From NCBI RefSeq assembly GCF_000026545.1, contig NC_011601.1: a stretch of DNA of 64,000 nucleotides; one strand, given 5' to 3'. This DNA comes from Escherichia coli O127:H6 str. E2348/69. Lineage in GTDB: Bacteria > Pseudomonadota > Gammaproteobacteria > Enterobacterales > Enterobacteriaceae. Below, piece by piece: positions 8,463-9,345 of the stretch. The translations under genes were made by a program, and so were the position numbers. The notes below the pieces were generated by a model that worked only from the letters and a program-made list of their open reading frames with translations, was not told where the DNA came from and ran no database searches. How positions within the stretch are numbered: position 1 is the stretch's first letter; each line of letters opens with the position of its first letter.

Positions 8463-8993
8463 ATGTCATTAAGGAGAATGACATCTGGTGAATTAACATT
8501 AGCCAGATCGATTTTTGAGAATACAATTGATTATAACAAGGTATGGATCCACAATGAAAAATATTTGCCCGGTCAAGGGGAAAGAACAGCGATGACCCCA
8601 AACGGGGAAATGTATTATCCTGATGCTGTTTATAGTTCAGATTTTTCATCGCAATCAATGCCTGGTGAGCGTGAAACAGTAGCAGGTGCTTCTCACTTGT
8701 TTATTCATGAAATGATGCATATTGGGCAATATCAGAAAGGGTATGCAGTTAAGTTGCGTGGTTTATTTTCCTGGGCGGCAAATTATCATTACGATCTTAA
8801 CTTACAGTCAATTGCTTCTTATTCCATGGAGCAACAAGCATCTATAGTAGCTGATTATTGGCTATTGATTAACTACGGACTGGTAGCTGATTTGGCAAAT
8901 GTTAACTATGTAGGTGATACAACTGAATCAGTGAACACGCTATCGGAAAAATACAAAAAGGTGCTTAATTTATTTCCTGCGGGCGTCATATGA
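8463..8993 (+). CDS. hypothetical HExxH protein (putative zinc metallopeptidase-like; possibly DUF4157-type)
   Basis: 176 aa ORF with AGGAGAAAGG RBS; motif HEMMH at residues 82-86 (nt 8706..8720) in context ASHLFIHEMMHIGQYQ; no signal peptide; low-GC locus; stop overlaps next ATG (ATGA). Confidence 0.6.
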   Translation: MSLRRMTSGELTLARSIFENTIDYNKVWIHNEKYLPGQGERTAMTPNGEMYYPDAVYSSDFSSQSMPGERETVAGASHLFIHEMMHIGQYQKGYAVKLRGLFSWAANYHYDLNLQSIASYSMEQQASIVADYWLLINYGLVADLANVNYVGDTTESVNTLSEKYKKVLNLFPAGVI

Positions 8994-9345
8994 AGAGATT
9001 TTTTTATTGTTCTTTTTATCGGGATGCACTGTTGGTGATTACGTTCGCCCATTGTTGCCCGGTAATATATCTTTACAAGACGGACGGGTTTGTTCAAAAC
9101 CAGACGATGGGAGTATGATTTCAAATTATATTTTATATGAAGGTAAATATGGCAATGTAGTAAAACTGAAAAAATTGACTGGTCAGTTCGAACCCGTATG
9201 TATTGACATAAGTGAGCTATCTTCAGATGTTACTTATATCGGAAAATATATGCTCTCTTCCGGAAGTAAAAAAGAATACTATGGTTTTAGCATAATTAGA
9301 ACAGGGGTGCGTATTTTAAGACTTGATGATAATCATATTAAATAA
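8990..9345 (+). CDS. putative lipoprotein (candidate partner/immunity protein); ATG and body are in different frames across a T7 tract
   Basis: ATG 8990 overlaps the upstream stop; the ORF-track frame starts at TTG 9007 as MFFLSGCTVGDY.... One extra T in the T run 8999..9005 would give MKRFFLLFFLSGC, a classic lipoprotein signal with lipobox LSGC. Confidence 0.45.

Follow-up and report, generated by a model that had tools for sequence, protein, structure and literature searches.

A probable slippage frameshift in a putative T6SS immunity lipoprotein gene of Escherichia coli O127:H6 E2348/69

We analysed a stretch of 64,000 nucleotides of the E. coli O127:H6 str. E2348/69 genome (contig NC_011601.1; hereafter the window), in which a run of seven thymines directly follows the start of a predicted lipoprotein gene. 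In all likelihood, this T7 run is a genuine and fixed −1 frameshift in the fourth codon of the gene, which arose from T8 by replication slippage and left a pseudogene in a relic effector-immunity-vgrG island. The sequence itself, the distribution of alleles, the homology of the effector and the association with a vgrG deletion are shown below; that the product was exported and lipidated, that its function was lost and in which order this happened is inferred from them.

The ATG at 8990-8992 overlaps the stop codon (TGA, 8991-8993) of an upstream 176-aa ORF (8463-8993) and is followed by AAG AGA and seven T's, exactly as given in the preliminary description of this DNA. The same ATG is the annotated start in genomes with a T8 tract and in genomes with an interrupted tract, and the ATGA arrangement is typical of translational coupling. 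The features of the locus are the following:

8463..8993, + strand: intact gene for a predicted cargo effector, a 176-aa zinc metallopeptidase resembling the C-terminal part of VgrG2b (Tpe family), based on a phmmer match to PDB 6H56
8990..8993, + strand: ATGA overlap of the lipoprotein gene start with the effector gene stop, read from the sequence
8990..9118, + strand: out-of-frame ORF from the native ATG in the T7 allele, 42 codons, MKRFFYCSFYRD..., stop TGA at 9116-9118
8999..9005, + strand: uninterrupted T7 homopolymer directly 3′ of AAG AGA, the probable contracted T8 and frameshift lesion
9007..9345, + strand: remaining body of the putative Tpi-like immunity lipoprotein gene, annotated from TTG 9007 as a 112-aa 'hypothetical protein' (WP_012578901.1)
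9016..9027, + strand: lipobox L-S-G-C (TTA TCG GGA TGC), with Cys as residue 13 of the intact precursor, kept in all full-length homologues
9169..9174, + strand: A-run, A6 followed by TTG, in frame; A7 in sister haplotypes and site of the second lesion in nine RM14723-like genomes
9567..10505, + strand: 5′ remnant (5′ third) of vgrG, ending at a deletion (10505) beyond which an internal Rhs fragment follows (RefSeq annotation of E2348/69)

With T7, the frame of the native ATG stops after 42 codons, whereas the addition of one T in silico resulted in a protein of 118 aa, MKRFFLLFFLSGCTVGDY..., which begins with MKRFFLLFFLSGC... and carries a predicted lipoprotein signal with the LSGC lipobox. 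This part of the preliminary description was therefore borne out. Shortening of the tract to T6 in silico gave no product. It had further been proposed that the long ORF of the T7 allele (9007-9345; product MFFLSGC...) can only start at TTG 9007. This codon is indeed the first ATG, GTG or TTG and is preceded, 8 nt to its 5′ side, by a Shine-Dalgarno-like AAGAGA motif, but the frame is open from 8935 (TGA 8932 lies upstream) and also includes CTG 8977, ATT 8968 and ATT 8998. Across the whole 64-kb window we counted 10 T7, 1 T8 and 6 A7 runs; a T7 run is thus not rare per se, and the significance of this one rests on the comparison between genomes, where it breaks a frame that is conserved elsewhere. 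RNA folding around the tract revealed no significant structure (z = −1.1) and hence gave no support for a stimulator of programmed frameshifting. A scan of the sequence for promoters and terminators gave only background levels.

When the upstream 176-aa protein was searched against the PDB with phmmer, it matched 6H56_A ('Effector domain of P. aeruginosa VgrG2b') with an E-value of 2.9e-18 (query residues 4-138, chain residues 99-233). Its HEMMH at residues 82-86 (DNA 8706-8720) aligned with the HEMTH of VgrG2b, the HExxH zinc-binding motif. By this similarity, the protein clearly appears to be a homologue of the VgrG2b metallopeptidase domain and a putative periplasmic effector of the Tpe/VgrG2b type. 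No match was found in Pfam-A, even at E <= 10, or in NCBIfam. This includes Pfam DUF4157, to which the family has been assigned (PMC6899460) and which the 176-aa protein did not hit despite its direct homology to 6H56. RefSeq lists the HEMMH protein as a 'hypothetical protein' or under the misleading name 'type IV secretion protein Rhs'. In most genomes that carry the locus a full-length vgrG is located ~220 bp downstream, while the window itself holds only a vgrG remnant.

It has previously been shown that toxins of the VgrG2b C-ter family are harmful only in the periplasm, and that the metallopeptidases of Enterobacteriaceae are cargo effectors that stand alone (Wood et al. 2019, PMC6899460). 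Judging from VgrG2b C-ter, the intact effector gene of E2348/69 would be harmless as long as its product stays in the cytoplasm. In the same study, the PA0261 immunity protein gave no protection when made without its signal peptide, and immunity depended on DsbA, indicating that disulfide formation matters. The enterobacterial immunity homologues are predicted lipoproteins, one of which has been localised to the outer membrane (Wood et al. 2019, PMC6899460).

The frameshifted gene fits this description. It lies directly downstream of the effector gene with the ATGA overlap, as is the case for immunity genes of the Tpi/PA0261 type, and on these grounds it is the predicted cognate immunity lipoprotein gene of the HEMMH effector. 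In the repaired frame, K2 and R3 are followed by FFLLFFL and LSGC, which matches the lipobox pattern [LVI][ASTVI][GAS]C. The signal peptide had been called 'textbook'; the LSGC is present, but the peptide is short, with a hydrophobic core of 7 residues and the Cys at residue 13, earlier than usual. Envelope targeting is encoded by the T8 and interrupted alleles (MKRFFL.FFLSGC) and is absent in the T7 allele, in which the signal-peptide codons no longer share a frame with the rest of the gene. The signal peptide, the lipobox and residues C35 and C71 of the intact protein are kept in all full-length homologues, down to 50% identity. The possibility that homologues start at the downstream codon and are made without a signal peptide, which would have spoken against a lesion, was thus contradicted. 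NCBI names the intact alleles 'lipoprotein'. With the lipoprotein as query, the NCBIfam model NF045617 ('putative T6SS immunity periplasmic lipoprotein') scored 33 bits, under its cut-off of 43, and no match was found in Pfam. A phmmer search against 1.84 billion representatives found E. coli-type relatives and spurious matches to giant repetitive proteins only, so no distant family could be built. In E2348/69, the ORF at 9007-9345 is still open and has no further lesion.

A first question was whether T7 is real, since a homopolymer sequencing or assembly error, with T8 as the true sequence of E2348/69, had been offered as one explanation. Homopolymer miscalls are common, and the assembly of another T7 strain, A36, has six other homopolymer indels in 5 kb. 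However, the 1-kb region around the tract was 100% identical in three E2348/69 (O127:H6) assemblies (CP059840.2, LT827011.1, which is denoted 'variety 2', and LT903847.1), in agreement with the window. T7 was also found in A25 (monkey, Mexico) and DCE7 (pig, China), two independent isolates with a near-identical haplotype that show no indels relative to E2348/69 over 5.2 kb and encode an identical 112-aa product. Sequencing error is therefore excluded for the E2348/69 lineage; we regard this explanation as effectively refuted, with a probability close to nil.

We then compared tract length at the homologous loci, as the preliminary description had suggested. The locus is present in 226 of 5,426 complete E. 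coli genomes, and alleles were read from fetched loci and from the match lengths of 201/202-nt queries. In ~193 of the 226 carriers the tract is interrupted and, among the genomes listed, has either the same length as T8 or six nucleotides more (match lengths of 202 or 208). These genomes hold allele (a), AGA TTC TTT TTG TTT TTC, which encodes MKRFFLFFFLSGC in a protein of 118 aa (tract sequence of this majority group, TTCTTTTTG), or allele (b), which is (a) with an in-frame duplication of TTTTTG, encoding MKRFFLFLFFFLSGC in a protein of 120 aa. The T8 variants that had been asked after do exist in the population: allele (c), MKRFFLLFFLSGC, was present in 24 of the 226 genomes, read directly in 10 fetched genomes and deduced for the remaining 14 from a match length of 202 nt. 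From the overlapping ATG, the T8 and interrupted alleles both read MKRFFL.FFLSGC. The T7 allele (d) was found in nine genomes, namely E2348/69 (three times), A25, DCE7, A36, Z1323HEC0477 and 2022H047/048. Neither T6 nor T9 was seen among the 226 carriers, and none of the listed genomes of the interrupted group had a frameshifting length of 201 or 203. These alleles indicate that T8 was derived from (a) by three substitutions and that T7 is a contraction of T8; the tract is a recurrent mutation hotspot. The TTTTTG duplication in the core of the signal peptide is a common allele, present in S10 (fetched locus L023:491-853) and about 20 listed genomes. The length of the pyrimidine-rich region varies, and wherever the gene is kept it does so in frame.

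Relatedness was assessed from distances over 2,422 ungapped columns and from pairwise indel lists. Among the 33 closely related T8 and T7 alleles, T7 occurs on at least two and up to four haplotype backgrounds. Two cases are robust, the clade of E2348/69, A25 and DCE7 on the one hand and 2022H047/048 on the other; in each of them T7 lies beside a deleted vgrG, and the deletions differ. The third background, A36 (T7), differs from A20 (T8) by 0-1 substitutions. The A36 assembly (CP028739.1) shows six further G/C homopolymer-length differences from A20 in 5 kb as well as 'frameshifted' ansP and vgrG. With so many homopolymer indels in the assembly, the T7 of A36 cannot be relied on and a sequencing error is plausible there; we discounted A36 as an independent T7 event, as the assembly is probably error-prone. 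The fourth, Z1323HEC0477 (T7), is 1-2 substitutions away from the T8 strain FHI_NMBU_03 and has an intact effector gene and a full-length vgrG. Its T7 may likewise be an assembly error.

Furthermore, the island around the gene is decayed. At 9567-11606 of the window, the 5′ third of vgrG is fused by a deletion to an internal, frameshifted Rhs fragment. A query across this vgrG-rhs junction (breakpoint 10505) was fully covered in exactly 14 of the 5,426 complete genomes, while in the other listed genomes it was matched only to query position 106. All 14 junction genomes have a frameshift in the lipoprotein gene, which is due to T7 in five of them and to a deletion in the A7 run in the other nine. 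This second lesion removes one base at CTGAAAAAA(A)TG (most parsimoniously, A7 became A6) and truncates the protein at residue 62; it was verified by sequence in 5 of the 9 genomes. Over 5.2 kb, the T8 haplotype has just two homopolymers that reach a length of 7 or more, T8 and A7, and the only indels between E2348/69 and RM14723 over the same 5.2 kb are at these two sites. As two different lesions occur within one junction group, they cannot both predate the vgrG deletion. The proportion of frameshifted genes (14/14 with the junction vs 4/212 without; Fisher test, p = 4e-19) is descriptive only, because the genomes are phylogenetically non-independent, and the 14/14 association represents about 2-3 events. 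In 2022H047/048, T7 lies beside a different vgrG deletion.

The frameshift-pseudogene alternative of the preliminary description was thus upheld by an intact frame with signal peptide at the site in 217 of the 226 carriers, by the decayed locus and by the second, independent frameshift in sister genomes. E2348/69 has been stated to have no T6SS (Miquel et al. 2010, PMC2941450); a literature search for this locus in E2348/69 found nothing specific. In 2022H047 (fetched locus L008:3168-5144), the deletion joins the 5′ part of vgrG to a flavin reductase remnant and nhoA. In A31 (fetched locus L020:765-2594), an ISAs1 insertion splits the effector gene, which is another decay route of the island. 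A further decay route is a 1-base insertion that frameshifts the effector gene of Z1323CEC0015 (fetched locus L019:2063-2594), where the lipoprotein gene and vgrG are intact. In the window, a 92-aa ORF at 11928-12206 directly follows the Rhs C-terminal fragments and is possibly an orphan Rhs-toxin immunity gene.

These data are consistent with decay by slippage, for which we propose the following course. In the ancestral state, as judged from homology, effector and immunity gene would have been co-transcribed and translationally coupled via the ATGA. The precursor MKRFFL(L/F)FFLSG|C would be exported, lipidated at Cys13 and kept in the periplasm, probably with a C35-C71 disulfide, where it would neutralise toxin injected by sibling cells. 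In a subclade, a few near-silent point substitutions may then have turned TTC TTT TTG into T8, which would be prone to slippage. With the loss of vgrG, and in E2348/69 of the whole T6SS, sibling toxin would have disappeared and self-protection would no longer have been needed, and slippage from T8 to T7 could be tolerated and fixed. In E2348/69, ribosomes from the coupled ATG would now terminate after 42 codons. The product from TTG 9007 would have no charged N-region, little of the hydrophobic core and no export signal, and should therefore stay cytoplasmic and be useless as immunity.

In this course, the loss of immunity would be tolerated for want of siblings that deliver the toxin, since the neighbouring vgrG had already gone and E2348/69 lacks a T6SS. 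The T7 of Z1323HEC0477 beside a full-length vgrG counts against decay by slippage in this form, as it indicates that T7 and vgrG loss need not go together. The remainder of the ORF is open and its 112-aa product is shared with A25 and DCE7, which suggests that decay is recent or that some constraint persists. In addition, an orphan immunity gene could still help against attackers, and its loss is therefore not obviously neutral.

Three other accounts of the tract were weighed. Slipped-strand phase variation, in which T7/T8 would be a contingency tract by which populations reversibly stop and resume the export of the immunity lipoprotein, was the third possibility raised initially. It would be in line with the position of the tract just after the start codon, a typical site for translational phase variation, and with T7 on at least two and possibly four backgrounds, among them the near-identical pairs A36/A20 and Z1323HEC0477/FHI_NMBU_03. 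The survey did not support it: only lengths 7 and 8 occur, without T9 or T6, T8 is short for an A/T contingency tract, and three separate E2348/69 stocks are all T7. Moreover, the tract is a derived state of a minority clade and is broken up in ~85% of carriers, hence not maintained, the T7 call of A36 is unreliable, and the second lesion in the same gene of sister genomes, which lies outside the tract, fits decay rather than switching. We consider such a switch very unlikely. A functional product with a shortened or alternative start, from TTG 9007 (MFFLSGC...) or from CTG 8977 ((M)RASYEEIFLLFFLSGC...), is highly improbable. The frame is open from 8935, CTG 8977 and the Shine-Dalgarno-like AAGAGA are both present, and PGAP has named the CTG-started version 'lipoprotein', but PGAP is inconsistent on the same sequence. 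CTG is a very weak initiator in E. coli, which counts against this account, as does the net negative N-region of the CTG-started protein (R, E, E). The protein made from TTG begins without a charged N-region and with no more than 3 hydrophobic residues ahead of the lipobox, and removal of the signal peptide abolishes protection in the PA0261 immunity family (PMC6899460).

Leaky rescue of the T7 allele also appears unlikely. Here RNA polymerase would add an extra U in U7, or ribosomes would slip by −1 on AGA UUU UUU U, and little protein may suffice. Either event is predicted to restore the exact T8 product MKRFFLLFFLSGC..., and the ORF 3′ of the tract is still intact. On the other hand, a stimulatory structure is lacking. 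The heptamer A UUU UUU does not correspond to the canonical X XXY YYZ slippery site, which also argues against a ribosomal slip. Single-base insertions in E. coli transcripts occur mostly in A/T runs and rise exponentially with run length, which speaks for rescue, but in that study no reading frame was seen to be repaired by a transcription error (Traverse & Ochman, PMC5574713). As a precedent, rescue of a T6SS gene by transcriptional frameshifting is reported for Citrobacter tssM (PMC4256274). Efficient slippage is tied to runs of about 9 or more (PMC1088944), compared to 7 here. Nor is a need for rescue apparent in a strain that is devoid of a T6SS and carries the locus in decayed form. Finally, the recent T8 tract might serve as a simple switch or a leaky valve, by which lineages that lost their T6SS hold an orphan immunity gene mostly off (T7) and, on meeting E. 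coli attackers with the cognate Tpe metallopeptidase, revert to T8 or read through by slippage of RNA polymerase or ribosome; this, too, we regard as very improbable. Decay by slippage thus remains our preferred reading.

The closest known system is VgrG2b C-ter/PA0261 of P. aeruginosa (Tpe-Tpi; PMC6899460; 6H56). The E. coli locus shares with it the effector similarity including HExxH (E 2.9e-18), a small, envelope-targeted and cysteine-bearing immunity protein encoded directly downstream, and a position of the pair next to vgrG. In contrast to VgrG2b, the effector here is a free protein of 176 aa and not a VgrG fusion, and in E2348/69 the immunity signal peptide is lost by frameshift and vgrG is a deletion remnant; the likeness to PA0261 is one of position and features. 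As in other homopolymer frameshift pseudogenes, a one-base contraction of an A/T run near the 5′ end is accompanied by neighbouring lesions and by second lesions in relatives. Unlike in those, the tract is young (three substitutions leading to T8) and was hit repeatedly in a small clade. Contingency genes with poly-G or poly-A tracts (Neisseria, Haemophilus, Campylobacter) likewise have a homopolymer after the start of an envelope gene, with on and off lengths among close relatives, whereas the present tract is short (7/8), has two lengths, is unconserved and invariant in three stocks, and occurs alongside locus decay. tssM of Citrobacter rodentium is likewise reported as a T6SS-related gene broken at an A/T homopolymer, in which +1 nucleotide in the mRNA would restore the frame (PMC4256274). 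In comparison with that case, the E2348/69 locus gives no sign of rescue and its run is below about 9.

The effector-immunity family, homopolymer frameshifts and the decay of orphan T6SS islands are all known, and this instance is undescribed but ordinary; its general significance is small. It nevertheless offers a small example of how near-silent substitutions may create a homopolymer that becomes the breaking point of a gene under relaxed selection. The unnamed and often mislabelled HEMMH neighbour gains a probable identity as an effector of the Tpe/VgrG2b type. We predict that E2348/69 is susceptible to this effector when T6SS+ E. coli deliver it, which may matter in gut competition experiments with the strain. 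A switchable or leaky orphan immunity gene would be of moderate interest if true.

The frameshift from T8 to T7 would also account for the 112-aa 'hypothetical protein' without signal peptide that RefSeq lists in this EPEC reference strain. Identical T7 DNA is annotated inconsistently. PGAP placed the start at TTG 9007 in E2348/69, A25 and DCE7, and at a CTG 30 nt upstream (window 8977) in A36, Z1323HEC0477 and 2022H047, resulting in a protein of 122 aa, which is named 'lipoprotein' in the A36 record. The corresponding positions in the fetched loci are L004:878, L007:2578 and L008:2578.
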